32,000 nt of DNA from Dethiothermospora halolimnae (GTDB lineage Bacteria > Bacillota > Clostridia > Tissierellales > VENL01): the NCBI RefSeq assembly GCF_037577855.1, contig NZ_JBAKFX010000018.1, forward strand, positions 32,211 to 64,210, read 5' to 3'. The notes below the pieces were generated by a model, which saw only the letters and a program-made list of their open reading frames with translations, ran no database searches and was not told the origin of the DNA. Made by a program: the position numbers and the translations under genes. This document shows positions 16,959-31,931 of the stretch, piece by piece (the first letter of the stretch is position 1; each line of letters starts with the position of its first letter).

Positions 16959-16991
16959 CTTTGGAAATTATTATTAAAAGAAGGTGTAACA

Positions 16992-17177: not shown

Positions 17178-17219
17178 ATGGATATTATAAACTTATTTTT
17201 TATTGATGAATATGGTTGA
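17178..17219 (+). CDS. 13-codon micro-ORF (MDIINLFFIDEYG) with strong SD
   Basis: aaaggaggtga lies 7 nt upstream of ATG 17178, and the stop is TGA 17217-17219. No other support. Confidence 0.2.
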   Translation: MDIINLFFIDEYG

Positions 17220-17261
17220 TTATAGCTTTTAGTAAAATATTGGCATATAGGAAGTGATTAT

Positions 17262-17720: not shown

Positions 17721-17766
17721 AAAAAACAAAAATAAAAGATTCATTCAAGAAAGGGGAAGATAGATA

Positions 17767-19134
17767 ATGCCAGGTGGTACATTTAATCCATTAGTAGGTA
17801 AAGTAAGACCAGGAATGTATATGAACTTTGAAGCTGTTACTCAAGATAGAATCAAGTCTCAAGAGAGGGGTACTGTTTTAATGCCACTACCCAATGCTAA
17901 ATGGGGACCAGCAAAAGAGTTTATAACCATAACAGACCCATCGGAAACATATGATTTACTAGGATATGATATAAATGATAAAGAAATGTTATTAATTAAA
18001 GAAGCATTTAAAAACTGTAAGAAGGTTATAGCTTATGTATTAGCAGAAGGAGAAAAGGCTAAAGCTAGGGTAGGAGATTTAGAGATTACAGCTAAACATG
18101 GTGGAGTAAGAGGTAATGATATAAAAATAGTCATAGCTAAAGACTCTAATGATAGTAAAAACGTTATAACATATTTAGGAGATAATATAGTAGATGAACA
18201 AAATGTTAATGGCATATCAGATCTAAAGGATAATAGATTTGTAGAATTTACTAAAGGAGAAGTTTTGCCAGCTAAAAATTCAGTAGAAAAAACTCTAATG
18301 GCTCCAGCAGAGGAGCTTGTGGAAACAGCGGGTACATCCCTTAAAGGGGGAAGTAATGGTGTTTATTCAAACATTGATATTACTGAATTTTTAAGTGAAA
18401 GTGAAACCCAATTCTTTGATTGTATAGCTTTTCCTATAGAAGATCCTTCGTATCAGTCAAGTTTTAAAACAAAATTAGAGTATTTTAGAGATGAAATAGG
18501 GAAAAAAGTTATGGGTGTTACTTCTAACTATGATGGAGACTTAGAGGGACTTATAAATGTTGTAAATGGAGTAGTTTTAAATGATGGAACTAAACTTTCT
18601 GCAAGAGAAGCCGTTGCATGGGTAGCAGGAGCAACATCAGGAGCCAACATAAATGAATCCTTAACCCATAAGGTATATCAAGATGCGGTGGATGTTAATC
18701 CAAGATTAAAACATGACCAAATAGTTGAAGGGCTACAAAAAGGTTATTTTATATTCACAAATACTGGAGATAAAGTGATTGTAGAGCAGGACAGAAATAG
18801 TTTAACTACATTAAGTGCTAAAAAGACTAAAAAGTGGACTAAGAATAGACCCCTTAGGGTTATGGATGCAATAAACAATGACTTATTAAAAAGTTTCAAT
18901 GGTACCTATGCAGGTAAATTGGATAATAATGATGATGGACATAGTATAGCTAAAGCTTTAATAACAAAATATTTAACAGCATTACAAGATGTTAATGCTA
19001 TTAGAAACTTAAATAAAGAGAATGATGTTATTATTGATAAAGAATTATCGGTAGGAGATGAGTTATATGCAGATATAGCTGTTCAACCTATGGATGCAGC
19101 AGAAAAATTCTATTTCACAGTGAAAGTTCGATAG
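17767..19134 (+). CDS. Contractile tail sheath protein (XkdK-like)
   Basis: The N-terminus MPGGTFNPLVGKVRPGMYMNF is typical of PBSX/SPbeta-type sheath proteins. Length 455 aa, followed by the tube gene. Confidence 0.85.
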   Translation: MPGGTFNPLVGKVRPGMYMNFEAVTQDRIKSQERGTVLMPLPNAKWGPAKEFITITDPSETYDLLGYDINDKEMLLIKEAFKNCKKVIAYVLAEGEKAKARVGDLEITAKHGGVRGNDIKIVIAKDSNDSKNVITYLGDNIVDEQNVNGISDLKDNRFVEFTKGEVLPAKNSVEKTLMAPAEELVETAGTSLKGGSNGVYSNIDITEFLSESETQFFDCIAFPIEDPSYQSSFKTKLEYFRDEIGKKVMGVTSNYDGDLEGLINVVNGVVLNDGTKLSAREAVAWVAGATSGANINESLTHKVYQDAVDVNPRLKHDQIVEGLQKGYFIFTNTGDKVIVEQDRNSLTTLSAKKTKKWTKNRPLRVMDAINNDLLKSFNGTYAGKLDNNDDGHSIAKALITKYLTALQDVNAIRNLNKENDVIIDKELSVGDELYADIAVQPMDAAEKFYFTVKVR

Positions 19135-19146
19135 GAGGTATAAATA

Positions 19147-19584
19147 ATGGGAATTTATTCAGGTAGACATACAATATCAGCAAGGGAAGGTAGAGCTTTT
19201 TCAGACGGTGAAGAAATCTTAAATATGATAAAATTTGAGATTAAAGCTGAAAAAATTAAGGTGGAATTACCTATAGTAGGTAGAAGAACTAAAAGTAACA
19301 AAACAGTTGGAATAAAATATACAGGAACAATAACACAGTATAAGAAAAGTAGTGCTTTTGCTAAGATGATTCAAGAGTTTAAAGAAACAGGAAAAGATGT
19401 ATATTTCGATATGCAAGGGGTATTAGAAGACCCATCAAGTGAACTAGGAGCAGAGCGTATAGTGGCTATAGGTTGTAATATAGATAGTGCAACTTTAATA
19501 AACATAGACATTGAAAGTGATGATGTTGTTAAGGAAGAAATACCTTTTACAATTGAAGATGTAGAGATACAACAGGCTATTTAA
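19147..19584 (+). CDS. Tail tube protein (XkdM-like)
   Basis: 145 aa directly after the sheath gene. The size and the sequence pattern (..REGRAFSDGEEILNMIKFEIKAEK..TGTITQYK..) fit the XkdM/DUF2001 tube family. Confidence 0.75.
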   Translation: MGIYSGRHTISAREGRAFSDGEEILNMIKFEIKAEKIKVELPIVGRRTKSNKTVGIKYTGTITQYKKSSAFAKMIQEFKETGKDVYFDMQGVLEDPSSELGAERIVAIGCNIDSATLINIDIESDDVVKEEIPFTIEDVEIQQAI

Positions 19585-19590
19585 GTGATA

Positions 19591-19625
19591 GTTGAGAATG
19601 GAGAATTGAGAGTGGAAAGTAAGTG
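19591..19625. repeat. Second copy of the gagaattgagagtgga repeat motif
   Basis: The 16-mer gagaattgagagtgga at 19601-19616 is identical to 3249-3264, with similar flanks (ttga.aat.gagaattgagagtgga.agt.aag). Both copies start within about 10 nt of a stop codon. Confidence 0.5.
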
Positions 19626-19626
19626 G

Positions 19627-19657
19627 GAGAAGTGGTTTATACCACTTTTCTTCATTT
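19627..19657 (+). terminator. Terminator-like hairpin after the tube gene (possible attenuator)
   Basis: Stem gagaagtggt / accacttttc (one mismatch), loop ttat, followed by ttcattt. A second strong hairpin gctgggggatt-cgt-aatcccccagc at 19730-19754 has no U-tract. Confidence 0.45.
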
Positions 19658-19795
19658 ATAAACTTAAACCCAATAAAATTTTAGTTTTTTCGGATTGATA
19701 ATCTCCATCTAATTTAAATAATTATTAGTTGCTGGGGGATTCGTAATCCCCCAGCTAATTTAAATTAAAAATGAAATTAAAAGAGGAGGATTAAA

Positions 19796-20233
19796 ATGAC
19801 AAATAAAAATACTAGAGATTTAAGTTTCTTTATGAAAGGTAAAGCAAATGAAGCGATGACCAGGGAAGTAATTATATCAAAAAGATATACTGATGAAAAT
19901 GGAAATCCTATTCCAGTTTTATTAAAACCAACTACAACAGAAAAGGTTGAAAGATTCCAGAAGGAATGTACCGTAATAAAAGGTAAGGGAAATGGTGCTA
20001 AAGAGGTCGTTGACAATATAAGATTTGCAGGAAAATTAGCAATAGAATGTTGTGTATATCCTGATTTTAAAGATAAAGAGCTTCTTAAGTCCTACGAATG
20101 TGTAGATCCAATTGATTTGATTAAAAAGATATTTAGCCTACCAGGGGAATATGCAGAGTTAATGAATCAAGTTCTTAGTATAAATGGATTTGATGAAGAC
20201 TATGAAAAGCTAGTAGAAGATGCAAAAAACTAA
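19796..20233 (+). CDS. Tail assembly chaperone (XkdN-like, gpG analogue)
   Basis: 145 aa between the tube and tape measure genes. It ends at a slippery heptamer. Confidence 0.7.
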   Translation: MTNKNTRDLSFFMKGKANEAMTREVIISKRYTDENGNPIPVLLKPTTTEKVERFQKECTVIKGKGNGAKEVVDNIRFAGKLAIECCVYPDFKDKELLKSYECVDPIDLIKKIFSLPGEYAELMNQVLSINGFDEDYEKLVEDAKN

Positions 20234-20394
20234 TTAAAAGCGGTGATTATATGGCTGTATATAGTCATCGTTTATTTCAGAGGCATCATATACTACCCCA
20301 AGATTTTTATGAAATGGATGATTGTAAAAAAGCTTTCATTATAGCCTCCGAGCAAATACAAATTGAAGAAGAGAAAAAATTAGATAGGAGGTGA
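19796..20394 (+). CDS. Frameshift-extended chaperone (gpGT analogue)
   Basis: The -1 frame downstream of 20230 (LIKSGDYMAVYSHRLFQRHHILPQDFYEMDDCKKAFIIASEQIQIEEEKKLDRR) ends 3 nt before the tape measure ATG. This is the conserved G/GT arrangement of long-tailed phages. Confidence 0.55.
20224..20230 (+). promoter_or_regulatory. Programmed -1 ribosomal frameshift site A_AAA_AAC
   Basis: Zero-frame codons are gcA AAA AAC TAA. After a -1 slip the next codon is CTA at 20230, and the frame is open to TGA 20392-20394. Confidence 0.65.
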
Positions 20395-20397
20395 CCT

Positions 20398-22812
20398 ATG
20401 GCAAGTTTAGCAAAGGTATTTAATATAAACGAAAGAATATCAGGCAACTTAGCAAAAACCACAGAGGTAATTTCAAAATTTCAAGGTAATTTAAAGAAGA
20501 TGGCCCAAGTTGGGGAGACCTCGGCAAACAAAGTTAATAAAAAAATAAAAAAGTTATCAACCGATAGTAGTAAGAGTTTTAATGAGTTAGAAAAAGCTGC
20601 AATAACTATAAAAAATCCTATAGAAGAAGTATTAAACAATAAAATAAATATAGAAGCCTTGGTTAAAACAGAAAACCTAGAAAAAATAAAGGATATAACG
20701 AAGGAAGTAACGGGAATAGACTTAGGAGAAATAAAGTTTAGTAAAGAGGGATTAACAAAGGTAATAGATCAAGTAAAAAATAGTAAGTTAAATATGAAGG
20801 CCTTAGTTGATACAAAGAACCTAGAGAAGATAAAAAATATAACAAAGGATGTAACAGGGATAGATTTAGGAGAAATAGAGGCAAGTAAGGAACAGATAAC
20901 AAAAACAATAGAGCAAATAAAAAATAGTAAAATAAATATGAAAGCCTTGGTTAAAACAGAGAACCTAGAAAAAATAAAGGATATAACGAAGGAAGTAACG
21001 GGAATAGACTTAGGAGAAATAAAGTTTAGTAAAAAGGGGTTAACAAAGGTAATAGACCAAGTAAAAAATAGCAAGTTAAATATGAAGGCCTTAGTTGATA
21101 CAAAGAACCTAGAGAAGATAAAAAATATAACGAAGAATGTAACAGGGATAGATCTAGGAGAAATAGAGGCAAGTAAGGAACAGATAACAAAAACAATAGA
21201 GCAGATAAAAAATAGCAAAATAAATATGAAAGCCCTGGTTAAAACAGAGAATCTAGAAAAAATAAAGGATATAACAAAGGAAGTAACGGGAATAGACTTA
21301 GGAGAAATAAAGTTTAGTAAAGAGAGATTAACAAAGGTAATAGATCAAGTAAAAAATAGTAAGTTAAATATGAAGGCATTAGTTGATACAGAGAACCTAG
21401 AGAAGATAAAAAATATAACAAAGGATGTAACAGGGATAGACTTAGGTGAAATAAAATTTAATAAAGAAGGACTAACTACCTTTATTAATCAAGTGAAAAA
21501 TTGCGAAATAAATATAGATGCTTTGGTAAATACAGAAAACTTAGGTAAGATGAATGATGTCTTAAAGGATGTAACAGGGATAGATTTAGGAGAAGTAGAG
21601 TTTAGCAAAGAAGGTTTAACCAACTTTATAGATCAAGTAAAAAATAGTAACTTTGATATAAAAGCTTTAGTAAATACAGAGAACTTAGGAAAAATCAATG
21701 ATGTTTTAAAGGATATGACAGGAATAGACTTAGGAGAGATAAAGTTTAATAAAGAAGGTATTAGTAGTTTTATGGAAAGTGTTAAAAATGCTAAGTTTGA
21801 CTTGGGAGCTTTAGTCAATACTGAAGGATTTAAAAATATAGCTGCTTCAGTAACAGAAATCTCTGGAATAGAACTTGGAAATATAAGTTCCTCTATAGAA
21901 GGATTGAAGGGATCTTTTTCAAATTTAGCTAGCCAAGGACTTGCTGGAGTCAAAGAAGGACTTGGAGGATTTCTTGATAAAATTGGATTAGCAAAAATAA
22001 AGACAGGGGCACTTATAGCTAAACAATACGCAATGGCAGGTATAACTAAGGCCGTAACAGTGGTTCAATGGCTGTGGAATGCAGCATTAAGTGCAAATCC
22101 CATAGGGTTGGTGATTATAGCAATCGCCGGTCTAATAGGGGGTCTAGTTCTTTTATATAAAAAGTGTACATTTGTAAGAAAGATAGTAGATGGATTCTGG
22201 AGTGGACTTAAAAGTGGTGCTGAGATGGCGGTAAACTTTGTTATAAAGATGATTAATAAGTTTATAGGATGCTTAAATAAAGGTATTAAGCTTATTAATA
22301 AAATTCCAGGAGTAGATATACCAGAGATTCCAGAAATTCCAGAGGTATCATTTACAGATAAAAATAAAGAAAATAAAGTAGAAAAGGGACAGGAAGCACC
22401 AGAGCTAGTTAAGGGAGTACAAATGGTTCCTGAAGGACCAAAAACTTTAGATGGTTCTGATATGAATTTTAATAATAATAAAATACCAACTGGAACAGAA
22501 ACATTACAAGAAAAAACCAGCTATACAAAGGATATAAATATAAACCACGATTTTAATAATATTCCCGATAGTAAGGGGAATATTGATTCTTCTAGTAACT
22601 TTAATAACATATCAAAAACAGAAACCAATGAAATAATATATGGCTCATCTAAACAAAGGGAAACTGTAAATAATGATAATAGAAATTATTCAGTGGTCTT
22701 TGGAGATAGGGTGATTGAAAAGAAAGCAAATGTGGATGAGATTTTAGATAGTATTAGAAAAGTATTAGAAGATGGTATGAATACAGGAGGTGAAGAGGTA
22801 TTTGAAATCTAA
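20398..22812 (+). CDS. Tail tape measure protein
   Basis: 804 aa in the canonical position after the chaperone pair. It has long helical repeats and a hydrophobic segment (ANPIGLVIIAIAGLIGGLVLLY). Confidence 0.8.
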   Translation: MASLAKVFNINERISGNLAKTTEVISKFQGNLKKMAQVGETSANKVNKKIKKLSTDSSKSFNELEKAAITIKNPIEEVLNNKINIEALVKTENLEKIKDITKEVTGIDLGEIKFSKEGLTKVIDQVKNSKLNMKALVDTKNLEKIKNITKDVTGIDLGEIEASKEQITKTIEQIKNSKINMKALVKTENLEKIKDITKEVTGIDLGEIKFSKKGLTKVIDQVKNSKLNMKALVDTKNLEKIKNITKNVTGIDLGEIEASKEQITKTIEQIKNSKINMKALVKTENLEKIKDITKEVTGIDLGEIKFSKERLTKVIDQVKNSKLNMKALVDTENLEKIKNITKDVTGIDLGEIKFNKEGLTTFINQVKNCEINIDALVNTENLGKMNDVLKDVTGIDLGEVEFSKEGLTNFIDQVKNSNFDIKALVNTENLGKINDVLKDMTGIDLGEIKFNKEGISSFMESVKNAKFDLGALVNTEGFKNIAASVTEISGIELGNISSSIEGLKGSFSNLASQGLAGVKEGLGGFLDKIGLAKIKTGALIAKQYAMAGITKAVTVVQWLWNAALSANPIGLVIIAIAGLIGGLVLLYKKCTFVRKIVDGFWSGLKSGAEMAVNFVIKMINKFIGCLNKGIKLINKIPGVDIPEIPEIPEVSFTDKNKENKVEKGQEAPELVKGVQMVPEGPKTLDGSDMNFNNNKIPTGTETLQEKTSYTKDININHDFNNIPDSKGNIDSSSNFNNISKTETNEIIYGSSKQRETVNNDNRNYSVVFGDRVIEKKANVDEILDSIRKVLEDGMNTGGEEVFEI
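20656..21951 (+). repeat. In-frame tandem repeat inside the tape measure gene: 9 x 144 nt (48 aa)
   Basis: Units ALV[KDN]T[EK]NLEKIK[DN]ITK[ED]VTGIDLGEI...VKNSK[LI]NMK. The first six alternate between two subtypes, giving three near-identical 288-nt super-repeats (20656, 20944, 21232). The last three units are diverged. Confidence 0.9.
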
Positions 22813-23452
22813 ATATCAATTTTGGCTTAGTTTTAATAATGGAGAACAAAGATTACAACTTCCGGTAAATCCTCCTAAAATAAAAATAGAAAATGGTATG
22901 AAAAATGAAACAATAGATGTATCTAATCTTGGAGAAATAACCGTTATTCAAAAGTCTACACCTAAAAAAATTTCAATAGAGAGTATTTTTCCAGCTAATG
23001 ATGGTCCCTACTGTGAGTATAAAGATATCCCAGAGCCCCAAGAAGCCGTTGACATAATAGAAAGTTGGCAAAATAGTGAAAAGCCCATAAGATTTTTAAT
23101 AACAAATACAAATATAAATTATCCTGTATCTATAGAAAAGTTTACCACCACAGAAAAGGCTGGGGATATTGGAACCATATCCTATAACTTAGAATTAAAA
23201 GAGTATAGATTTATAGAAGTAAAGGAAATGGAAGAAAAAAATGGGGAGATTAATATTGGTTCAAAGGAAGAAGAAAGAACCGATGAAAGAAGTATACCAA
23301 AACTTTATATAGTAAAGGCTGGAGATTGTCTTTATAAAATTGCAAAGTCCCAGTTAGGGGATGGATCAAGATATGGTGAAATAGCCAAATTAAATAATAT
23401 AAAGCCAGACTATACTATATACCCTAATCAAAAGTTAAAGCTTCCCAATTAA
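22790..23452 (+). CDS. LysM-domain tail protein (XkdP-like)
   Basis: C-terminal LysM motif YIVKAGDCLYKIAKSQLGDGSRYGEIAKLNNIKPDYTIYPNQKLKLP. The GTG start overlaps the tape measure end; TTG 22802 is an alternative. Confidence 0.75.
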   Translation: MKRYLKSKYQFWLSFNNGEQRLQLPVNPPKIKIENGMKNETIDVSNLGEITVIQKSTPKKISIESIFPANDGPYCEYKDIPEPQEAVDIIESWQNSEKPIRFLITNTNINYPVSIEKFTTTEKAGDIGTISYNLELKEYRFIEVKEMEEKNGEINIGSKEEERTDERSIPKLYIVKAGDCLYKIAKSQLGDGSRYGEIAKLNNIKPDYTIYPNQKLKLPN

Positions 23453-23455
23453 GAG

Positions 23456-24436
23456 GTGAGGAGTTTGTTACAGCTAATACTAGTTAAAAAGGATAAATCA
23501 GTGGATATTTCAAAGTTAGTAGAAAAGATAACTTGGAAAGGTAAAAAGCTAAGGGCTCCACGAAGTGTTGAAGTATCCTTTGTGGATACAGATAAGGGAT
23601 ATCATAAGAACGTAGGCATAAAAGAAGGGGACGGTTTAGTTTTTATTTGGAAAGAGAATGAATTGTTTAGAGGAAATGTATTTAGTATAAGTAGAGGCAA
23701 AAGCGCTAAATCAAAGATGGTTGCCCATGACAATCTCTTTTATTTAGTAAATAATAAGGACTCTTATGTTTTCACAGAGCAGTCCCTAGATAAAATAGTC
23801 AGCAGAATATGTAGTGATTTTCAAATACCAACAGGTGAATTGACATCATCAGACTATATTATCCCCTATCAAGTTAGTGATTCTAAAGTGTTATATGACA
23901 TAATACTAAAAGCTATGGACACCACATATAACCAGACTGGTAAAAGATATTATCTAAGGGCTAAAGAGGGGAAAATAGATTTATTACTAAGAAAAGAAAA
24001 TGTAAGAAAATGGATTTTAGAAGATGGTAAAAATTTAATAAATTATAACCATAACTCTTCTATAGAAAATACAATAACTAAGGTAAAAATGACAACAGGA
24101 GAAGGGGACGAAACTATAATAAAAACAGCAGAAGATGGAAGTCTGGTAGAGCAATTTGGAGTTTTACAATATTATAAAAAAGTAAATGACAAAATAAATG
24201 AAGGACAGCTACAAGAAAGGGTGGATAAAGCCTTAAAAGAAAAGGGAAAAGTCGAAAAACAAATATCCATTGAAGCTATAGGCATAGAAGATATAATAAG
24301 TGGATGTGGAGTAAATCTAGCTATACCAGAGCTTGAGATAGAAAAGGGATATTATGTAGATGAAGATACCCATACCTTTAAAGGAAATAAACATACAATG
24401 AAGCTTAAACTTACTGAAACCATGGAATTGGGGTGA
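23456..24436 (+). CDS. Baseplate hub-region protein (XkdQ-like)
   Basis: 326 aa. Its size and position match XkdQ in the PBSX order P-Q-R-S-T-U. Confidence 0.55.
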   Translation: MRSLLQLILVKKDKSVDISKLVEKITWKGKKLRAPRSVEVSFVDTDKGYHKNVGIKEGDGLVFIWKENELFRGNVFSISRGKSAKSKMVAHDNLFYLVNNKDSYVFTEQSLDKIVSRICSDFQIPTGELTSSDYIIPYQVSDSKVLYDIILKAMDTTYNQTGKRYYLRAKEGKIDLLLRKENVRKWILEDGKNLINYNHNSSIENTITKVKMTTGEGDETIIKTAEDGSLVEQFGVLQYYKKVNDKINEGQLQERVDKALKEKGKVEKQISIEAIGIEDIISGCGVNLAIPELEIEKGYYVDEDTHTFKGNKHTMKLKLTETMELG

Positions 24437-24440
24437 TAGT

Positions 24441-24911
24441 ATGATAGATATTATAAAAAAAGTATCAAGTCAAGTGGCAAAAACTTCTGGCATAAATATA
24501 ATGGAAGCCATAATAACAAAGGAACCACCGGAAATTGAAATAAAGATTAAAAATAACGATAAGCTAATAATCCCTAAGGACCTTATTATAGTATCGGAAC
24601 ATTTACTAGAACATACTAGAATAGCTACTATAAAAATGGTGGAGCATATAGATTCTGAAACTGATGAACAGTTAACATCGCCTATTAGTGGTACAAGTAA
24701 AACATGTCAAGGAGCAATGCCTCCTATAAACTTTACCTTTCAAGGGACTGGTACTAGCTTAGACCTTACCCATAAACACATATTAGAAACCTTTACAATG
24801 GAAGATGGAGAGATAACCTTTAGATGCTGTTTAAAAGAAGGGGATAAGGTTATGGTTATAGCTTTTGAAGAGGGACAAAAGTATTATATCATGGATAAGG
24901 TGGTGAGTTAG
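24441..24911 (+). CDS. Baseplate/spike-region protein (XkdR position)
   Basis: 156 aa, 4 nt after the previous stop. The assignment is by synteny only. Confidence 0.4.
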   Translation: MIDIIKKVSSQVAKTSGINIMEAIITKEPPEIEIKIKNNDKLIIPKDLIIVSEHLLEHTRIATIKMVEHIDSETDEQLTSPISGTSKTCQGAMPPINFTFQGTGTSLDLTHKHILETFTMEDGEITFRCCLKEGDKVMVIAFEEGQKYYIMDKVVS

Positions 24912-25313
24912 ATGCCCCTTACACCAAATATAAAGATTCCTAAGATAGTAAAATCCACAGTAGGTCCATCTAAAACCTATAGACTTGACACAAAAGCTAA
25001 GCGGATAGTAGGAAAGATTGATGAATTAGAAGCTATAAAGCAGTTTGTTATGAAGGCAATAAGAACCGTAAGATACTCAAACTTAATATATAGTCATAAG
25101 TTTGGATGCCAAATAAAAAACTTGCTGGGAAAGGGACTAACAGAAGAATATATCAAATCAGAAGTGCCTCGGTTAATAGCTGAGGCATTAATTTATGATG
25201 AAAGAATTATAAAGGTCCATAGCTTTGATATAGAGGTTAAAGAGGATAAAATGTTTGTTGAGTTTATAGTAGATAGCACTGAAGGAGAGTTAAATATAAG
25301 GGAGGTGATATGA
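24912..25313 (+). CDS. Baseplate wedge protein, gp25/W-like (XkdS-like)
   Basis: 133 aa, start abutting the previous stop, directly upstream of the baseplate J gene. N-terminal pattern PSKTYRLD..RI.G.IDELEAIKQ.V.K is as in DUF2634/XkdS proteins. Confidence 0.55.
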   Translation: MPLTPNIKIPKIVKSTVGPSKTYRLDTKAKRIVGKIDELEAIKQFVMKAIRTVRYSNLIYSHKFGCQIKNLLGKGLTEEYIKSEVPRLIAEALIYDERIIKVHSFDIEVKEDKMFVEFIVDSTEGELNIREVI

Positions 25314-26354
25314 TTGTTTGAAGATAGGACATATGAAAATATCTTAAATGAAATGCTTAATGAAGTTCCCCATGACTTAGATAAAAGAGAAGGTTCTATT
25401 ATATACGATGCATTGGCACCTGCCGCATTAAAAATGGCCCAAGTGTATGTGGATTTAAAAAGTGTTTTGGCCTTAGGATTTGCAGATACATCCAATGGAC
25501 AATGGCTTGATATGAGGGTAAATGAAAGGGGACTTAAAAGAAAGGAAGCAATAAAAACAATAAGGGAAGCTAAGTTTAAACCAGATATAGTTAAGGAAGG
25601 TACAAGATTTTTTATAGATGGTTTATATTTTAAGTTAAGCAAAGATGGAAATGTAGAGTGTGAGATATCAGGGGAGATAGGAAATGAACCTTTAGATGGT
25701 AGCAGTTTAGTTCCTGTAAATACCATACCTAACCTTGAAGAAGCAAAATTAGGTAAGATAATAAAATATGGTAGAGATAAAGAGAGTGATGAAGAACTAC
25801 TTGATAGGTATATAGAGGATTTACAAAGACCTGCGGAAAATGGAAATAAAGCCCACTATGAAAAGTGGGCAACAGAAGTAAATGGGGTAGGAGATGCAAA
25901 GGTTTTTCCACGGGAATATGGGCCAAATACTGTAAAAGTAGTTATAATAGATTCTTCTGGAAAACCTGCTTCCCAGGAATTAGTTAAAAAGGTTCAAAAC
26001 TATATTGATCCAGAAAGTTCAGGACTAGGGGAAGGAGTGGCTAACTTAGGAGCTAAATGCACTGTTAAAAGTGCAACTAAGAAGATAATTAATATATCTG
26101 TAAAACTAGAGCTAGGGGAAAATAAGACTATAGAACAGGCAAAAAAAGAGATAGGCTCACTATTAAATGACTACTTAGTAGAAGAAATAGCCTTTAAACA
26201 AAATACAGTTAGAATAACTAATATAGGGAATATAATACTATCAGCTAAAAGTGTAATAGATTATTCGGATCTTAAGTTAAATGGAGAAACTAAAAACATT
26301 GAATTAAAAGATGAAGAAGTACCGATATTGGGAGAGGTGAGCTTCAATGAATAA
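25314..26354 (+). CDS. Baseplate J-like protein (XkdT-like)
   Basis: 346 aa. The N-terminus FEDRTYENILNEMLNEVP..DKREGSIIYDALAPAALKMAQ is characteristic of baseplate J/gp47-family proteins. TTG start. Confidence 0.75.
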   Translation: MFEDRTYENILNEMLNEVPHDLDKREGSIIYDALAPAALKMAQVYVDLKSVLALGFADTSNGQWLDMRVNERGLKRKEAIKTIREAKFKPDIVKEGTRFFIDGLYFKLSKDGNVECEISGEIGNEPLDGSSLVPVNTIPNLEEAKLGKIIKYGRDKESDEELLDRYIEDLQRPAENGNKAHYEKWATEVNGVGDAKVFPREYGPNTVKVVIIDSSGKPASQELVKKVQNYIDPESSGLGEGVANLGAKCTVKSATKKIINISVKLELGENKTIEQAKKEIGSLLNDYLVEEIAFKQNTVRITNIGNIILSAKSVIDYSDLKLNGETKNIELKDEEVPILGEVSFNE

Positions 26355-27003
26355 TAAAAAAGAGTTAAAAAGCTATCTACCCCATATTTATGAAGATGTT
26401 TATGAAATGAATAGCATTATAGAAGTAGAGGGAAGTCAATTTGACAAAATAGATAAAGAAATTGGAAGAGTATTAGAACAGTTTTTTGTTGATAAGACTA
26501 CCTACGAAATTGAGCATTGGGAAAATATATATGGACTAACCCCAGACCCATCTAAAACCATAGAACAGAGAAGAAGTGCTATAAAGTCTAGAATAAGGGG
26601 TAGGGGAAAACTAAATAAACAATTAATAAAAAATGTAGTTGATGCATATACCGATGGTCAAGTAGATGTCTTACTTAGAAGGGACCTACTGATTATAAGA
26701 TTTAATAGTATATATGGAATCCCAGAAACCCTTGATATAGTCAAAAGAGAACTTGATAACATAAAGCCGGCCCATTTAGGAATAGAATATAGATTTGCAT
26801 ATCTACTTATAAAAGATGTTCATAAAAAAATGACCCTAGAGGAAATAGAAAATGTTACATTGGATAAATTTGCAGGTAAAAGTGGTATCAATAGTCAACT
26901 TGATTATTTAACAATAGGGGCTATTCATAATGTAATGACCCTGGAACAAATTGAGAAGTTAACTTTGTACGAGATTACCGGAGGTGAAATATATGGCAAG
27001 TAG
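26347..27003 (+). CDS. Baseplate/tail protein XkdU-like (DUF2313/YmfQ-like)
   Basis: 218 aa, overlapping the baseplate J stop by 8 nt. The N-terminal LPHIYEDVYEMNSIIEVEGSQFDKI pattern is typical of this family. Confidence 0.6.
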   Translation: MNNKKELKSYLPHIYEDVYEMNSIIEVEGSQFDKIDKEIGRVLEQFFVDKTTYEIEHWENIYGLTPDPSKTIEQRRSAIKSRIRGRGKLNKQLIKNVVDAYTDGQVDVLLRRDLLIIRFNSIYGIPETLDIVKRELDNIKPAHLGIEYRFAYLLIKDVHKKMTLEEIENVTLDKFAGKSGINSQLDYLTIGAIHNVMTLEQIEKLTLYEITGGEIYGK

Positions 27004-28045
27004 AACGCCAAAACTTAAATTATTAAAAAAAGATCCCATGGCCGATAAGAATGATACATTTAACATTGAAACTATGTTAAATGATAACTGGGATATAATA
27101 GATACGGAAGTAGCAGGAAGATATACTAAAAACGAGACCAATAAAAAAATTGAAGAAACAGCAGACTCAATATATGAAGAAGTTAATAGGGTGGAACAAG
27201 GGATAAAGGCATATGCAGATAGTAATAGACCAACAAAGGTATCGGAACTTGAAAATGATGCCCATTATGAAACCATTGAGAGAACCAATGAAAAGATAAA
27301 TCAAGCAGAAAGCAATGCAAGGGAATACACAAGACAATATGCAAACTCAATAAAACCAACAAAGGTATCGGAACTTGAAAATGATAAGGGTTATGAAACA
27401 GTAGAAGGGGCACAAAATAAAGTAAGCACAGCAGAACAAAGAGCAAAGGCATATGCAGATAGTAAGAGGCCCACAAAGGTATCACAACTAACAAATGATA
27501 CCAATTATGAAACAGTAACAGGAGCCCAACAGGGGATTAATGCCGCTGAGCAAAGGGCAAAGGACTATGCCGATAATAAAAGGCCTATAAAGGTATCGGA
27601 ATTAACCAATGATGCAGATTATGAAACGGAATCAGGAGCCCATCAAAAAGCTAAAGCAGCAGAGGAAAGGGCCAAAAATTATACAAATGTCAAAGTAGCC
27701 CATCTATTAAATTCTGCTCCAGGGACTTTAGATACCCTTAACGAATTGGCAAAGGCCCTTGGTAATGATCCTAACTTTGCAACTACGATACTAAACAAAT
27801 TATCTAAAAAATCCGATGAAGGGCATAAACATACAAAGAGTGGTATCAGTAATTTTTTAGGTAGCAATAAAGAAAAGAAAATAGCCCATGGTTTAGGGAA
27901 AACTCCATCGGGGGTTTATGTAACACCTATTGAAAAGACCAATGGTTATTTAGGGGAAGTTTGGGTTAGATATGATGCCAACTATATTTATGTAGGAAAT
28001 ACTGGAGAATATAAAGGGAAATTTAATTGGGTTACATTAAGATAA
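26993..28045 (+). CDS. Tail fibre protein with internal repeats
   Basis: ATG 26993 lies 6 nt after GGAGGTG; the track start 26984 is less likely. There are four repeats of about 38-42 aa of the form YA[DN]S.[RK]P[TI]KVS[EQ]L[ET]ND..YET...A.......AE.RAK. The segment APGTLDTLNELAKALGNDPNFATTI is common in phage fibres. A short C-terminal domain follows. Confidence 0.75.
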   Translation: MASRTPKLKLLKKDPMADKNDTFNIETMLNDNWDIIDTEVAGRYTKNETNKKIEETADSIYEEVNRVEQGIKAYADSNRPTKVSELENDAHYETIERTNEKINQAESNAREYTRQYANSIKPTKVSELENDKGYETVEGAQNKVSTAEQRAKAYADSKRPTKVSQLTNDTNYETVTGAQQGINAAEQRAKDYADNKRPIKVSELTNDADYETESGAHQKAKAAEERAKNYTNVKVAHLLNSAPGTLDTLNELAKALGNDPNFATTILNKLSKKSDEGHKHTKSGISNFLGSNKEKKIAHGLGKTPSGVYVTPIEKTNGYLGEVWVRYDANYIYVGNTGEYKGKFNWVTLR

Positions 28046-28066: not shown

Positions 28067-29458
28067 ATGAAAAATACTAGATATCCAGATAGTGCTAGTT
28101 TTTTAGTTACAGAAAACTGTAACTTAGCATGTAAATATTGTTTTGAGAAACATAATAAAAAAGTGATGAGTAAAGAGGTGATCCATAGAGGGCTGGAGCT
28201 TTTATGTGATGGAGCAAAGAGACAAGGGAGAGACTCCTTTCATGCTATGATTTTTGGAGGAGAGCCATTATTACATCCCCATTTAGTAGAGGAAATACTT
28301 AAGTATGGGTTGGAACTCCAAAGAAGGAATAATATAAACTTTACAGCTAGTCTTATAACAAATGCAACAATAATGAATGATGAGATATTTAGAATATTAC
28401 TTGAATATAGGGACAAGGTTGATTTAAGTACCCAACTATCAGTGGACGGTATAAAAAAGGTTCATGATATGTATAGGGTAACTAAAGATGGAAAAGGAAG
28501 TTTTCAGTTAATTGAAGATAATATAGAAAAATTCAAACAAATATATAAGAACAGATCTGGAATGTTAACGGTACACGGGGTAGTGAATAAAAAGGCACTG
28601 CCCTATTTATTTGAAAGTTATAGATACTTTAAAGAGGAATGGGGATTTAATGAAATATGGTTTATGCCCCTCCATGAAGATGATTGGACCATTGAAGATA
28701 TTGATATATACAGAAAAGAGTTAAATAAGATAGCAGATTATATAATAGAAGATGCTAAAAAGGGTAAGATGAAAACATTTAAAGGATACTCTCCAATAAA
28801 TAGATGTTTTGAAAAACAAAGACCTTCAGCTCCCTGTGGAGCAGGAAAGGGATTTATAAGTATTACAGCCGATGGCAGTATATATCCTTGTCATCATTTT
28901 TATTTTAATCATAAAGAACTTAAAATAGGGAATGTATGGAAAGGCATCGATGATAGTAAAAGAAGAATATATCTAGACTATGAGTCCAGTGATATGACAT
29001 GTCCTAATAATTGTGATCATGTAAATTGCTATAGATGTATTGCTGTTAACTACGATGTTAATGGTAGTATATTAAGCCAAGTTAGAGGAAATTATTGTAA
29101 ACTATCTCGGGTAGATAGAGAAGTACAATTAAGGGTAAAAAGAGAAATTGAAAAAATAGAAAAGAAGAATCCCAAAGAAAATAGGAAAGATCAGGGGACC
29201 TTTATTGAAAGCTGGACAGAGGATGGAATGTACTATGAAAGATATAGAAATTCCGATGGAAGCGAAAGTGTATATGATAGACAGTTAAGAAATCGAGATA
29301 AGGAAGTAAATAAAAACAGTGACGACAAAGAATGTGATCATAATAAAGGAGAATGTCAGTGTGGAAGCAAAGAAGAGGATATGGAAACATTGGCTATGGC
29401 TTTAAAAATGATAATTGAAAAGCTTAATACCTTGGAGAAAAATATACCAAAAAAGTAG
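28067..29458 (+). CDS. Radical SAM enzyme with SPASM-type auxiliary-cluster domain (anSME-like maturase)
   Basis: CxxxCxxC at C18/C22/C25 (TENCNLACKYCF) and FGGEPLL. SPASM-like Cys pattern: C257...G270-x4-C275, C312-x3-C316-x4-C321-x2-C324, C344. A charged C-terminal extension of about 110 aa follows. The gene starts 21 nt after the fibre gene, with RBS aggagggg. Confidence 0.8.
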   Translation: MKNTRYPDSASFLVTENCNLACKYCFEKHNKKVMSKEVIHRGLELLCDGAKRQGRDSFHAMIFGGEPLLHPHLVEEILKYGLELQRRNNINFTASLITNATIMNDEIFRILLEYRDKVDLSTQLSVDGIKKVHDMYRVTKDGKGSFQLIEDNIEKFKQIYKNRSGMLTVHGVVNKKALPYLFESYRYFKEEWGFNEIWFMPLHEDDWTIEDIDIYRKELNKIADYIIEDAKKGKMKTFKGYSPINRCFEKQRPSAPCGAGKGFISITADGSIYPCHHFYFNHKELKIGNVWKGIDDSKRRIYLDYESSDMTCPNNCDHVNCYRCIAVNYDVNGSILSQVRGNYCKLSRVDREVQLRVKREIEKIEKKNPKENRKDQGTFIESWTEDGMYYERYRNSDGSESVYDRQLRNRDKEVNKNSDDKECDHNKGECQCGSKEEDMETLAMALKMIIEKLNTLEKNIPKK

Positions 29459-29469
29459 GGTGATGCTAT

Positions 29470-30144
29470 ATGAGTTTAAGTTTAAAATGGTTGATGAACT
29501 ATGGAAAGTCCAAGGGAGGATATGATATAACCCCTAACAATAGGCATTTAGAAGATTTAAAAATATTATTAAAGGACATGCAAAAGGTTAGAAAAGTAGG
29601 ACAGTATAATGGGGAATTATCCCTAGGTGATTTATATGATGAATTCGAAAAGCTTCCCTCTTGTAGTTGTGATAGTAAACATAGTTATATCTGTAGCTGC
29701 GAAAGTAGATGCGCCTGTGATAATAACATAGGAGATTGTAATTGTGAAAGTAGATGTACTACCCATAAAGTACCGGGATGTGATTGTGATAATAGATGTG
29801 CCTGTGACTCAAATGTGGGTAATTGTAGTTGTGAGGGTAGATGTGCCTGTGATAATAATGTAGGAAATTGTAATTGTGAAAGTAGATGTACCACCCATAA
29901 AAAGACAGGATGTAGTTGTGATAATAGATGTGCCTGTAATAGAAATATAGGAAGTTGTGACTGTGAAAATAGATGCAACTGTGTAAGTGAATGTTCATGT
30001 AATAGTAGATGCTCTTGTGTTCTTGACCAGCCCATATGTGACCCCCATGCAGTATGTGATAGATATTTACCTCCTGTATGTGAGCATCATCTAAAACCTA
30101 TATGTGAAGTTGATGAGAGGCGATATTATGCTGATAAGCATTAA
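29470..30144 (+). CDS. Cys-rich repeat protein A (224 aa, about 36 Cys)
   Basis: A Cys-free 64-aa N-terminal region precedes eight tandem 12-15-aa units such as CDCDNRCACDSNVGN and CNCESRCTTHKVPG, followed by the C-terminal PICDPHAVCDRYLPPVCEHHLKPICEV. The gene starts 11 nt after the rSAM stop. I recognise no homologue. Confidence 0.7.
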   Translation: MSLSLKWLMNYGKSKGGYDITPNNRHLEDLKILLKDMQKVRKVGQYNGELSLGDLYDEFEKLPSCSCDSKHSYICSCESRCACDNNIGDCNCESRCTTHKVPGCDCDNRCACDSNVGNCSCEGRCACDNNVGNCNCESRCTTHKKTGCSCDNRCACNRNIGSCDCENRCNCVSECSCNSRCSCVLDQPICDPHAVCDRYLPPVCEHHLKPICEVDERRYYADKH

Positions 30145-30204
30145 ATATAAATCCATGGGGAATAAAGGATATTATTATAAAAATCAGGAGAGGAGGCATA
30201 TTAT

Positions 30205-30708
30205 ATGGCTATAATAAAGAGTCTTCAAATAGATAGGGGACCCGCTGAACCACCAATAGAAATTTGTAGTTCAGAACGTTGTGATAGGGTTATGATAGAT
30301 CCCATATGTGATAGCCATGCACCAGAACCTATTTGTGAACTTCATCTATGTGATAGAGTAAACATTTGTCCATCGAATTGTAATTGTGAGTCAAACAATC
30401 CAAGATGTAAGTGTGATAATAGATGTAGTTGTAATGCTGATAATAGATGCGATTGTGAAAGTAGATGTAGTTGCCATGTTCAGAGAACATGTAGCTGTGA
30501 TAATAGATGTATATGTAATGGTCAAAAAGGATGTACCTGTGACAATAGGTGCTCTTGTGATTCCAAAAGAGGATGTAGCTGTGATAGTAGATGTAATTGT
30601 AATGTAGATAGAACGTGTGAGTGTGACAATAGATGTGCATGTAATGGCCAAAAAGGATGCACCTGTGATAATAGATGTAGCTGTAATGCTAAGAGATACT
30701 TTGATTAA
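30205..30708 (+). CDS. Cys-rich repeat protein B (167 aa, about 36 Cys)
   Basis: Strong RBS ggagaggagg. The N-terminal module EICSSERCDRVMIDPICDSHAPEPICELHLCDRVNIC is followed by seven regular 14-aa units (CSCDNRCICNGQKG, CTCDNRCSCDSKRG, ...). Confidence 0.7.
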   Translation: MAIIKSLQIDRGPAEPPIEICSSERCDRVMIDPICDSHAPEPICELHLCDRVNICPSNCNCESNNPRCKCDNRCSCNADNRCDCESRCSCHVQRTCSCDNRCICNGQKGCTCDNRCSCDSKRGCSCDSRCNCNVDRTCECDNRCACNGQKGCTCDNRCSCNAKRYFD

Positions 30709-30719
30709 GGAGGGGTAGT

Positions 30720-31598
30720 ATGGAAAGGTACGTTATACATGTGACGAAAAAATGTAATATGGACTGTTTTTACTGTTATGAGGAGGATAAAAGCAGTGGA
30801 GATAGAAGTTGGGAAGATACTAAAAATTTGATAGATGATATATTGAAATATAATAATGAGTTTGAGGTGGAATTTTTAGGTGGAGAACCTATGATGAACT
30901 TTCCTCTTATAAAAAGATGCATTAATTATTTAAAAGACAAAGGGAATGTAAAGAAATATATAATAACTACCAATGGAACTATCATTAATGAAGAGATAGT
31001 AAAGTTTCTAATGGAAAATTCCAATGTATGCTTAGGTGTAAGTCTCGATGGTAATAGGTTTATGAACAGTATGAGGGTATTTAAAGATGTAGATGGTAAC
31101 AAAATAAATTCTTATGAAAAAGTGATAGAGAATTTAGAAAATCTAAAACAAAATAATCTCATTGATAGAGTGTTTATTCATATGGTGATACATCCATACA
31201 ATGTGGGCTACTTAAGTGATGCAGTTGATCACTTCTATAACAAGGGTTATAAAAATATAGACATAGGAATAGTTGAAAAAACTTTAGATATAACTGAAGA
31301 GTTTGAAAGGGCATTTATCAGAGAACATGATATCCTATCTAATAGAATAAGAGTTGGTATGTACCCCGAGTTAATAGTAACCACATTAGATTATAAGCCA
31401 GACATTAGTAGCGAAAGAACATATATAAAGAATAAAGATGGAATTACAGTGGCAGAAAGCTATGGAAGGGTTAAAGACTTTACAGATAATGATAACAATG
31501 AATATGAAATACTAAAGAATGATAGTAAAATCAATAGAATAAAACAACTGAAATTAGCTGTATATAATAATCATAAAAATGTTATCCAAAGTAGGTAG
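30720..31598 (+). CDS. Radical SAM enzyme, core domain only (no SPASM/auxiliary Cys)
   Basis: CxxxCxxC at C12/C16/C19 (TKKCNMDCFYCYEE) and LGGEPMM. Only two further Cys in 292 aa. The gene starts 11 nt after Cys-rich protein B, with RBS ggagggg. Confidence 0.75.
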   Translation: MERYVIHVTKKCNMDCFYCYEEDKSSGDRSWEDTKNLIDDILKYNNEFEVEFLGGEPMMNFPLIKRCINYLKDKGNVKKYIITTNGTIINEEIVKFLMENSNVCLGVSLDGNRFMNSMRVFKDVDGNKINSYEKVIENLENLKQNNLIDRVFIHMVIHPYNVGYLSDAVDHFYNKGYKNIDIGIVEKTLDITEEFERAFIREHDILSNRIRVGMYPELIVTTLDYKPDISSERTYIKNKDGITVAESYGRVKDFTDNDNNEYEILKNDSKINRIKQLKLAVYNNHKNVIQSR

Positions 31599-31644
31599 AA
31601 ATCTAGAGAAGTTTAGTTTTCTTTTTTATTATTAAAATATGCAG

Positions 31645-31670
31645 GGCCTGGGCATGCCTAGGCCTTTTTT
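31645..31670 (+). terminator. Strong Rho-independent terminator after the rSAM cassette
   Basis: GC-rich stem ggcctggg / cctaggcc, loop catg, followed by tttttt. Confidence 0.8.
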
Positions 31671-31697: not shown

Positions 31698-31931
31698 ATG
31701 AATAATGAAGTTGTCAAATTAAAAATAACGGAACATGACAAAAAAATATCAGAACTGGATAGAAGAGTGGATAATAATGAAAGGGAAAATGCTGAGTTTA
31801 AAGTACAAATAGAAAATTTATGCAAAACTATCCAACAACTTACTGTCACTATGAAATGGTTTATAGGATTATTTTTAGGAGGATTTATATCCTTCTTTTT
31901 TTATGCAGTTCAAAAGGGGCTTATAGGATAG
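31698..31931 (+). CDS. xhlA: XhlA-like lysis-associated membrane protein
   Basis: 77 aa with an N-terminal coiled coil (HDKKISELDRRVDNNERENAEFKVQIENL) and a single C-terminal TM helix (WFIGLFLGGFISFFFYAV). The architecture matches PBSX XhlA. Confidence 0.65.
   Translation: MNNEVVKLKITEHDKKISELDRRVDNNERENAEFKVQIENLCKTIQQLTVTMKWFIGLFLGGFISFFFYAVQKGLIG

Follow-up and report, generated by a model that had tools for sequence, protein, structure and literature searches.

A tail-operon module of two radical SAM enzymes, a cysteine-repeat protein and a fibre C-terminal domain in anaerobic bacteria, with a possible role at the tail tip

Why would a phage-tail operon encode two radical S-adenosylmethionine (rSAM) enzymes on either side of two proteins densely packed with cysteine repeats? 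The question is raised by a 32,000-nucleotide stretch of DNA from Dethiothermospora halolimnae, a member of the Tissierellales (assembly GCF_037577855.1, contig NZ_JBAKFX010000018.1, positions 32,211 to 64,210 of the forward strand), hereafter the window, in which a contractile-tail element carries such a cassette between its tail fibre gene and its lysis genes. Comparative analysis places the cassette in a four-part module comprising a tail protein ending in a C-terminal domain of about 65 residues (CTD65), an rSAM/SPASM enzyme (rSAM1), a protein with an N-terminal domain (N-domain) followed by CxCxxR repeats, and a small rSAM enzyme (rSAM2). On the strength of these sequence comparisons we tentatively favour, as falling only a little short of probable, the reading that this is a tail-accessory module in which the enzymes cross-link the repeat protein, which would dock on CTD65 as a distal adhesin. 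The features concerned are the following:

26984-28045, + strand: tail fibre, 353 residues (tail-fibre PHROGs match residues 134-303)
27848-28042 (approximate), + strand: CTD65, the ~65-residue C-terminal domain of the fibre (118 bits with the hidden Markov model, HMM, built here)
28067-29458, + strand: rSAM1, 463 residues, radical SAM plus SPASM-type domain (Pfam Radical_SAM, 58.1 bits)
29470-30144, + strand: Cys-repeat protein A (CysA), 224 residues, an open reading frame (ORF) with tandem repeats
30205-30708, + strand: Cys-repeat protein B (CysB), 167 residues, an ORF with tandem repeats
30720-31598, + strand: rSAM2, 292 residues, core-only radical SAM (Pfam Radical_SAM, 67.6 bits)
31643-31666, + strand: terminator-like hairpin of 10 pairs, six of them GC, followed by TTTT, between rSAM2 and xhlA
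31698-31931, + strand: XhlA, first gene of the lysis cassette (Pfam XhlA, 59.5 bits)

A preliminary description of this region had recognized four packed forward-strand ORFs between the fibre gene and xhlA, and the ORF listing agrees, with gaps of 21, 11, 60 and 11 nucleotides along the series fibre/rSAM1/CysA/CysB/rSAM2. Its identification of the four products as an rSAM enzyme with SPASM, two Cys-repeat proteins and a core-only rSAM enzyme is upheld by the Pfam Radical_SAM matches, the conserved cysteines of the SPASM half and cysteine contents of 16% and 22%. It did, on the other hand, miss the fourth conserved partner, CTD65.

The function of the module is placed on the tail mainly because CTD65 is fused to bona fide tail proteins. 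In the window, the fibre is composed of an N-terminal baseplate-adaptor segment, about five coiled-coil-like repeats of ~37 residues and the C-terminal CTD65 (...IAHGLGKTPSGVYVTP...GYLGEVWVRYDANYIYVGNTGEYKGKFNWVTLR), a domain with the consensus F(A/V)GNGxExTIAHGLGxxPxxV...GYLGEVWIRxDxTNIYVGNSGSFxGxxxW. The gene 5' of rSAM1 ends in CTD65 in all other loci as well, with HMM scores of 53-152 bits across about 20 of them. What precedes the domain is diverse: the 353-residue fibre of the window, a 255-residue Phage_tail_fib protein, or non-contractile-tail proteins of ~880-1036 residues; the fusion partner is a Phage_tail_fib protein in a Tissierella locus (L007; loci are cited by number) and a 1022-residue YOMG_N/Prophage_tail protein in a Vallitalea locus (L004). 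Stand-alone CTD65 proteins of 94-120 residues have only 30-50 residues before the domain. Those of L005, L008 and L013 are only 105-120 residues long, and in L005 the stretch examined has no other fibre-like gene, with host genes directly 3' of rSAM2. In L099, a rearranged locus, and likewise in the second of the pairs in L106, the CTD65 gene stands directly 5' of a Cys-rich gene. We propose that CTD65 is the docking site for the Cys-repeat protein. The preliminary description had left a choice between a fibre accessory and a released factor resembling a ribosomally synthesized peptide with post-translational modifications (RiPP), and the linkage to a fibre domain favours the former. The shaft repeat of the window fibre (window 27200-27800) reads RPTKVSELENDxxYETxxGAQxKxxxAExRAKxYADxK, and the minimal CTD65 proteins of other loci are without any shaft.

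Besides the window, the module was recovered in about 20 distinct loci, with homologous genes in the same order, and all its parts are present at every locus with enough sequence, as judged by HMMs built here (118, 722, 92 and 395 bits in the window for CTD65, rSAM1, N-domain and rSAM2, respectively). The preliminary description had made its reading depend on the cassette being conserved beside tail genes in other genomes, and it is conserved there at these loci. Three of them have the following organization:

L004, Vallitalea okinawensis: SPbeta-like non-contractile tail; rSAM of ~455 residues, Cys-rich protein, rSAM of ~295 residues
L005, Desulfitobacterium chlororespirans: contractile tail, apparently tail-only; same three-gene order as L004
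L007, Tissierella sp.: contractile tail; same three-gene order as L004

The Cys-rich proteins of these three loci have no Pfam match. Taxa with the module include Clostridia, Desulfitobacterium, Tissierella, Thermoanaerobacterales, Izimaplasma, Peptostreptococcaceae, Clostridia metagenome-assembled genomes and IMG/VR entries, and scans of GTDB genomes and IMG/VR yielded about 12 viral contigs carrying it. The tails are contractile in L005, L007, L008, L012, L014 and L116 and non-contractile in L004 and L115; one locus has a tail of siphovirus type, marked by TMP_3 and Sipho_Gp37, and the phage contig L116, of ~45 kb, encodes a helicase and DnaB. The window and L005 are apparently tail-only, with no capsid genes in the stretches seen. 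Hence, the system is not peculiar to this tailocin: it is also found in non-contractile tails and in apparent full phage genomes. Going by gene content, the module occupies the fibre end of the tail operon in both tail architectures and is, as far as sampled, restricted to strict anaerobes, and this comparative evidence supports the earlier view that it is a tail module rather than part of a classical RiPP cluster.

Enzymes and repeat protein are co-inherited in every locus examined, with rSAM2 as the search anchor as well as with the Cys-rich protein. The rSAM2-anchored genome scan used two exact peptide patterns, and seven of its 80 loci were true orthologues, the others being unrelated rSAMs. 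Two loci anchored on distant Cys-rich homologues (L117 and L118) have the same enzyme sandwich plus a third rSAM gene (331-346 residues) 3' of the small rSAM (L117 9906-10946, L118 9877-10872); L118 also carries a Peptidase_U32-like gene. Among relatives the norm is one Cys-repeat protein flanked by the two enzymes, and L106 has two Cys-rich genes with a single enzyme pair. A one-to-one assignment of two enzymes to two substrates, as initially envisaged, is therefore not upheld, since relatives have one substrate between two enzymes. The window itself deviates from the module in its split A/B proteins, in having Cys for Thr after the Arg of the repeat, and in an rSAM1 without the CLCDxRG tail motif.

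Several loci carry additional genes. Peptidases occur in three of about 20 loci: S8 peptidases lie 3' of the cassette in L001 (1626-2732) and L088/L115 (15968-17116), beside an endolysin and 41% identical to each other, and a C39-like peptidase lies 3' of rSAM2 in the Vallitalea locus L004 (8896-9519). None is found in the window or in most loci, and peptidases are not part of the module; a conserved peptidase partner was considered and rejected, the S8 type being confined to two loci and the C39-like type to one. In L013 (3285-4178), a 297-residue protein with a glycosyltransferase 2 (GT2)-type DDNSTDGT motif, recognized by eye, is encoded between the Cys-rich gene and rSAM2, which suggests extra glycosylation of the repeat protein there. 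An IMG/VR contig (L104, 4219-11768) has, among about five rSAM genes, a different cassette of two Cys-rich proteins of ~200 residues, whose repeat is of the type CTCNCNYACTCNGRCSCDCNY... and whose N-domain is also unlike that of the module; it may be a sister system. Further, a contig binned as "Candidatus Nanoarchaeia archaeon" (L010, JAQUVJ010000003.1) has a Cys-rich gene and an rSAM2 orthologue 42% identical to that of the window; misbinning of a contig from a bacterial phage or prophage is the probable explanation.

Turning to the enzymes, both exceed the Pfam Radical_SAM (PF04055) cut-off of 29.5 bits and have the CxxxCxxC cluster motif, as C18-x3-C22-x2-C25 in rSAM1 and C12-x3-C16-x2-C19 in rSAM2. 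The C-terminal half of rSAM1 contains eight cysteines, all kept in eight aligned orthologues. The SPASM reference motif (PF13186/TIGR04085 type) is a C-terminal seven-Cys pattern, CX9-15GX4C ... CX2CX5CX3C ... C, which holds two auxiliary [4Fe-4S] clusters; in rSAM1, C257-x12-G-x4-C275 has the canonical spacing and the second block, C312-x3-C-x4-C-x2-C324 followed by C344, a non-canonical one, and the Pfam SPASM model (PF13186) scores 20.1 bits, slightly under its gathering score of 21.5. rSAM2 has a single CxxxCxxC cluster and no auxiliary-cluster cysteines. Through its first ~335-360 residues, i.e., rSAM core and SPASM half, rSAM1 aligns to SPASM-type Cys-peptide maturases in NCBIfam (PapB 209.7, CXXX-repeat 143, QhpD 141, SCIFF 141 and CcpM 128 bits), and both enzymes score under every curated NCBIfam cut-off. 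By sequence, the best relative of each in the PDB is CteB (5wgg, E=7e-29 for rSAM1; E=6e-18 for rSAM2). An AlphaFold2 model of rSAM2 (predicted local distance difference test, pLDDT, 87) has as its nearest structures CteB (Foldseek E=7e-14), anSME, ChlB, TigE and SkfB, all of them peptide- or protein-modifying enzymes. The rSAM2 family comprises at least 159 clusters at E<=1e-10, the best 120 of which match at E<=7e-52, and nearly all members have ~285-300 residues. Co-inheritance and the peptide- and protein-modifying relatives lend support to the earlier suggestion that the Cys-repeat proteins would be matured by the rSAM enzymes.

Two more specific assignments were rejected. Membership in the anSME type, which converts Cys to formylglycine, founders on a score of 78.7 bits with the anSME model TIGR03942 (cut-off 349) and on the absence of [CS].P.R from A and B. 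A viperin-type antiviral or defence enzyme is likewise discounted, as only generic rSAM-core similarity is seen, with 55-66 bits for viperin NF038283 in NCBIfam (cut-off 180) and 51-73 bits for pVip in PADLOC.

The C-terminal tail of rSAM1 is ~100 residues long and charged. In 15 of 18 distinct rSAM1 orthologues it contains a substrate-like unit, usually GNNPNNPDCLC(D/N)xR(G/D/E) followed by an amphipathic helix; carriers are L004, L005, L007, L008, L012-L014, L088, L092, L095, L099, L101, L103, L106, L108 and L116, and the versions without it are L091, L098 and the window rSAM1, where it is lacking at 29100-29458. For this CxCxxR-type unit, roles as a pseudo-substrate, as a site of self-modification or in docking are conceivable.

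The two putative substrates in the window have 36 cysteines each, in 224 residues for CysA (16%) and in 167 for CysB (22%), and together display 15 CxCxxRC units (eight and seven). The pattern C.C[DE][NSG]RC.C matches five times in A and seven times in B. At the DNA level, A contains a 45-nucleotide tandem repeat in 6.2 copies and a 132-nucleotide higher-order repeat in 2.2 copies, and B a 42-nucleotide repeat in 6.8 copies; the reverse-strand ORFs inside the repeats are by-products of repeat composition, the conserved ORFs being those of the + strand. CysA consists of a helical N-domain (1-65), its eight units (75-183) and a C-terminal PICDPHA/CDRY/CEHHL segment. CysB consists of an N-terminal segment related to the A tail, seven CxC(D/E)xRCxC units and a canonical family C-terminus (CTCDNRCSCNAKRYFD), whose ...CSCNAKRYFD matches the ...CxCNGRCSCNxxKRF of single-gene homologues and which CysA does not have. 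No signal peptide is evident by eye in either.

The relationship between A and B is informative. The segments PICDxHA, CDR(Y/V) and CE(H/L)HL are common to the tail of A (186-224) and the head of B (14-55), and a 217-residue single-chain relative has A-like and B-like halves together. Their sequences are most readily understood if A and B are the two halves of a single ancestral protein, and the shared motif may be an interface that holds the halves together. They share a reading frame and are nonetheless two genes, as four TAA stops intervene and B has its own GGAGAGGAGG ribosome-binding site; readthrough, selenocysteine insertion and frameshifting, considered as ways of joining A to B, are rejected on the same grounds. 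The second motif type, with a Cys every five to nine residues (window 30025-30141 and 30244-30369), is absent from other aligned family members. AlphaFold2 models of CysA, from a shallow seven-sequence alignment, show three helices at residues 1-65 (pLDDT 66-85) and repeats with pLDDT below 50; that the repeat region is unpredictable as a fold would fit a cross-link-dependent structure.

In a word-index search CysA wrongly looked almost unique, as only itself and one relative were returned, and seven sequences with a 10-sequence profile; an exhaustive HMM scan found 137 representatives. The family thus comprises 137 representatives at E<=1e-3 and 91 at E<=1e-10 in a profile search of 1.84 billion representative proteins. 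The one word-index relative is 43% identical and comes from a 5.6-kb metagenome contig, where a small rSAM is encoded next to it, together with an S8 peptidase and an amidase. A typical member has an N-domain of the form MSLSLRELK..GYDITP..L.DLK.LL..M..VR ... LSLGD, then CxCxxR units (up to 25 per protein, median 8.5), and often a CxCNGRCSCNxxKRF C-terminus. Lengths run from 167 to 494 residues (median ~250 among representatives) and cysteine contents from 12 to 22%. Neither the Cys-rich proteins nor CTD65 are covered by Pfam, NCBIfam, PHROG or PADLOC models, and the Cys-rich family profile has no match among PDB sequences; the expectation that the Cys-rich ORFs would have no well-characterised homologues was borne out against Pfam, NCBIfam, PHROG and PDB sequences. 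For CTD65, GenBank phages were likewise devoid of matches, as they were for CysB, and their rSAM matches are at most 36% identical and include no orthologues.

In the 93 best family representatives, 82% of the cysteines lie in CxC pairs, 69% of the pairs have R at +5, and the residue after the second Cys is N in 39%, D in 16%, V in 12%, Q in 10% and E in 6% of cases. The conserved Arg is followed by Thr in 39-47% of units, by Cys in 10% and by Ser in 9%. The unit conserved across the family is thus, by alignment, CxCxxR(T/C/S) rather than an acidic residue beside Cys. The preliminary description had stated that the repeats always carry such a residue; this stands for 14 of the 15 window units, which have D or E after the second Cys, and fails family-wide, where N prevails at this fourth position over D and E. 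With D and E not conserved in the family, the Cys-Asp/Glu cross-links that it had named as one possibility lose their particular support. As aligned, the acidic residue of the window and its RC in place of RT are lineage-specific, and the window units look like amplified copies of the C-terminal unit of the family.

The members of the module also differ in their rates of evolution. Over 120 locus pairs, the median identity is 41% for rSAM1, 44% for rSAM2, 43% for CTD65 and 29% for the Cys-rich protein, and in the closest pair the corresponding values are 91%, 93%, 98% and 82%. The Cys-repeat protein is the fastest-evolving, length-variable member of the module. Fast evolution and a variable number of units are usual for receptor-binding proteins, and the behavior of the repeat protein fits a specificity determinant, be it receptor-binding or toxic.

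Taken together, these features can be accommodated in the following scheme. The cassette appears to be the 3' end of the tail operon because the terminator-like hairpin stands between rSAM2 and xhlA; it is the sole strong hairpin of this kind, none comparable having been found between the fibre gene and rSAM2. The module would be transcribed as the last part of that operon, and A and B would be made in the cytoplasm, where rSAM1, with a predicted three [4Fe-4S] clusters, could work along the 8 + 7 CxCxxR units and turn Cys thiols into intramolecular thioether (sactionine- or ranthionine-type) cross-links, with single-cluster rSAM2 adding a second radical modification. The product might be a redox-insensitive, heat- and protease-resistant, knotted repeat domain, a substitute for disulfides in the extracellular particle of an anaerobe. 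The three-helix N-domain of A would dock this domain on CTD65 at the fibre tip, B could join through the segment it shares with the C-terminus of A, and the tail would owe its distal adhesin, or receptor-binding surface, to the variable residues that lie between the fixed positions of Cys and Arg.

The steps of this scheme are not equally firm. From their arrangement and kinship, it is very likely that the two enzymes modify the repeat protein, and likely, going by its relatives, that the chemistry of rSAM1 is thioether cross-linking. Docking of the N-domain on CTD65, with the cross-linked repeats as distal adhesin, is plausible, and we infer virion incorporation and a receptor-binding role for the repeat protein. 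The claim in its fullest form, that the protein is stapled by two phage-encoded rSAM enzymes through dozens of thioether or other radical cross-links and forms part of a receptor-binding tail tip, as the first enzyme-cross-linked virion protein, we put forward with more reserve, as a real possibility.

Several observations weigh against the adhesin scheme. CysB has no N-domain, and ~6 kb separate the Cys-rich gene from the enzymes in L098. In L116 other large fibre proteins are present and CTD65 is a free 94-residue protein, and hence the module is not always the sole fibre. The cross-link acceptor residue is not deducible from sequence. Both enzymes are devoid of a RiPP recognition element (RRE), the rSAM1 alignment starting at CteB residue 103 and SCIFF profile position 102, which leaves recognition of the N-domain without an obvious route. 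Finally, the N-domain itself (~65 residues, helical, near the conserved LSLGD) can equally be read as a large RiPP leader, and the S8 or C39-like peptidases after the cassette in three loci would fit leader removal.

These last points lead to the first of two alternatives that we consider unlikely, namely that the product is RiPP-like cargo, with the N-domain as leader and the repeats as a multi-unit core, modified by the rSAMs and released by lysis as a bacteriocin, signal or metal-chelating factor. The position of the module would then be the usual cargo ("moron") slot between fibre and lysis genes, directly 5' of the latter, which would allow release without an exporter. The best enzyme matches are all RiPP maturases, the helical N-domain of ~65 residues followed by LSLGD resembles long leaders, peptidases lie nearby in three loci, and a GT2-like glycosyltransferase is inserted in L013, glycosyltransferases being known from glycocin-type clusters. 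However, a free-living toxin has no need of co-inheritance with a domain fused to tail fibres and other tail proteins, immunity and exporter genes are lacking, and peptidases are missing from most loci, including the window. Moreover, the putative cores of 100-400 residues are far above those of known RiPPs, the L005 cassette is followed by host genes and no lysis gene, and it is from the lysis genes, not from the tail genes, that the terminator-like hairpin divides the cassette. The cargo reading thus leaves unexplained both the fibre-domain linkage and the absence of exporter and immunity genes.

Of comparable improbability is a role in the virion other than adhesion, as a rigid fibre extension, a protective tip cap, a penetrator of cell wall or S-layer, or a metallothionein-like CxC metal binder. 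It draws on the same linkage to tail proteins as the adhesin reading; the CxC density resembles that of metal-thiolate proteins, and the hosts are thermophilic or halophilic anaerobes, in which particle stability matters. Nevertheless, a part with a purely mechanical role would account less well than a specificity determinant for the rapid evolution of the repeat protein and its varying number of units, and simple metal binding needs no two dedicated rSAM enzymes. Lastly, that the rSAMs act on another target (CTD65, some other protein of the tail or, as in viperin, a small molecule or nucleotide), with the Cys proteins as Fe-S or sulfur donors or scaffolds, could appeal to weak viperin/pVip similarity (65.7 bits against a cut-off of 180; 61-73 bits), to a CTD65 as strictly conserved in the module as the enzymes and to the CxCxxR unit in rSAM1 tails, but seems very unlikely, as the viperin matches cover the generic rSAM core only and lie far under the cut-off, Cys-peptide-modifying enzymes are the best matches in both sequence and fold, and 8-25 identical motif units between two enzymes are a classic substrate arrangement.

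The principal features of the element outside the cassette are:

16364-26354, + strand: capsid-less contractile-tail module (PHROG and Pfam matches; Pfam matches in the longer contig L002)
16364-16873, + strand: sigma-like regulator (PHROG and Pfam matches)
17767-19134, + strand: sheath (PHROG and Pfam matches)
20398-22812, + strand: tape measure (PHROG and Pfam matches)
25314-26354, + strand: baseplate J (PHROG and Pfam matches)
26347-27003, + strand: Mu Gp48-like baseplate/tail protein, 5' of the fibre gene (phrog_521, E=8e-48; PF10076 in L002)

The gene order is sigma-like regulator, a 152-residue protein, sheath, tube, assembly chaperone, tape measure, LysM protein, baseplate proteins, baseplate J, Gp48-like protein and fibre. 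Upstream lie host genes (inhA-like, glmM, glmS, a GGDEF-EAL protein, a permease and feoB, up to 15378), and 3' of xhlA the longer contig L002 has an M23 peptidase and a holin, beyond which lie non-phage genes. The element has no genes for capsid, portal or terminase, and a further 7 kb downstream is also without head genes. The element thus has, as known from its genes alone, what characterizes R-type tailocins, i.e., genes from sheath to lysis, no head genes and host genes on the flanks, and the "tailocin-like" of the preliminary description is, on gene content, a fair term. As it had also noted, no peptidase besides the lysis M23, no transporter and no immunity gene accompanies the cassette in the window.

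Some incidental features of the region may be recorded. The tape-measure gene holds a 288-nucleotide tandem repeat, with identical promoter-like strings at 20752, 21040 and 21328 (window 20752-21357), and its ORF from 20398 has 804 residues here as against 900 in the public gene call. Directly 3' of feoB lies a zinc-ribbon-like ORF of 46 residues with four CxxC pairs (15392-15532), and a 13-bp perfect bidirectional hairpin at 15565-15594 marks the left edge of the tail element.

The statement that no described tail module carries such a cassette agrees with our literature searches (full-text, combining rSAM, SPASM or ranthipeptide with phage tails, prophages and tailocins), in which no description of an rSAM/Cys-repeat tail cassette was found. 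The enzyme-substrate logic, an rSAM/SPASM enzyme acting on a Cys-rich substrate, is already known in kind; the novelty lies in the size of the substrate, in a second enzyme that is obligatory, in a dedicated fibre-tip domain and in the location within tail modules. To our knowledge, virion proteins mature by proteolysis, autocatalytic isopeptide bonds or glycosylation, and not via dedicated radical SAM enzymes. If the adhesin reading is true, the repeat protein would be the first virion protein to be cross-linked by enzymes and would exceed all known rSAM-modified substrates in size, and phage structural biology would gain a new class of post-translational modification. It would offer a redox-proof substitute for disulfide-rich adhesins, with the CxCxxR scaffold as a natural display platform for variable loops, and a new class of rSAM/RiPP substrate of about 170-490 residues with up to 25 identical units, served by an RRE-less SPASM enzyme and a single-cluster partner. 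In anaerobic Firmicutes, among them thermophiles, halophiles and gut Clostridia, it would also be what likely determines the specificity of tailocins and phages, and the part to engineer for retargeting. Even if the product is a released RiPP-like factor, a protein family of 137 representatives and two enzyme families would gain their first functional context.

How, then, does the module compare with known systems? In the window, its setting resembles that of R-type tailocins and PBSX-like elements (diffocin; PBSX xkdV-xkdW-xkdX-xepA-xhlA), with tail genes followed by an XhlA lysis cassette, but we know of no described tailocin or PBSX-like element that carries rSAM enzymes or Cys-repeat proteins in this slot. 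A functional analogy may be drawn with the T-even gp37-gp38 adhesin, as in gp38 of Salmonella phage S16, a separate small protein whose N-terminus docks on the fibre tip and whose hypervariable segments lie between glycine-rich motifs; gp38, however, has no sequence relationship to the repeat proteins and needs no enzymatic cross-linking. Thuricin CD, with the rSAMs TrnC and TrnD and the peptides Trn-alpha and Trn-beta, superficially resembles the window in having two rSAMs and two Cys-containing substrates. Pairing in the cassette does not appear to be one enzyme per substrate, as in relatives the enzymes flank a single substrate and one of them lacks SPASM.

Other parallels are found among maturases. 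The CXXX-repeat (TIGR04115/TIGR04119) and CcpM (TIGR04068) systems, for which rSAM1 scores 143, 85 and 128 bits against cut-offs of 350, 150 and 500, likewise have rSAM maturases that target tandem Cys-motif repeats, albeit of another motif, and we know of no phage-tail association for them. Among solved structures, CteB of the SCIFF (thermocellin) system (5wgg/5why) comes nearest to both enzymes in sequence and to rSAM2 also in fold. It forms a Cys-to-Thr thioether, and Thr follows the conserved Arg in many units of the cassette family, as given above. Unlike CteB, the cassette enzymes have no RRE, and the 141 bits with TIGR03974 compare with a cut-off of 425; their substrates are unrelated to the 45-residue, six-Cys SCIFF peptides, the neighbors in the window being repeat proteins of 167-224 residues.

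The best curated family for both enzymes is PapB of the freyrasin system (NF047865; 209.7 bits for rSAM1 and 109 for rSAM2, cut-off 340). PapB, the SPASM rSAM of this ranthipeptide system, introduces many thioethers at the Cys residues of a motif repeated along one substrate, freyrasin having six CxxxD units, and its model, like rSAM1, starts at the rSAM core. The cassette differs in its substrates, which have 167-494 residues and CxCxxR units as against a peptide of ~50 residues, in its obligatory SPASM-less second rSAM, in its tail setting by way of a fibre-tip domain and in the lack of a conserved protease or exporter. With QhpD/QhpC, from the maturation of quinohemoprotein amine dehydrogenase (TIGR03906; rSAM1 141 bits, cut-off 453), there is no shared neighborhood, as qhp genes are absent and the neighbors are tail and lysis genes, and the Asp and Glu acceptors of QhpC are not conserved in the cassette family. 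QhpD is nonetheless an rSAM/SPASM enzyme that installs several Cys thioethers in a protein subunit which stays in a larger assembly, and it thereby provides a precedent for cross-linking on the scale of a protein rather than a peptide.

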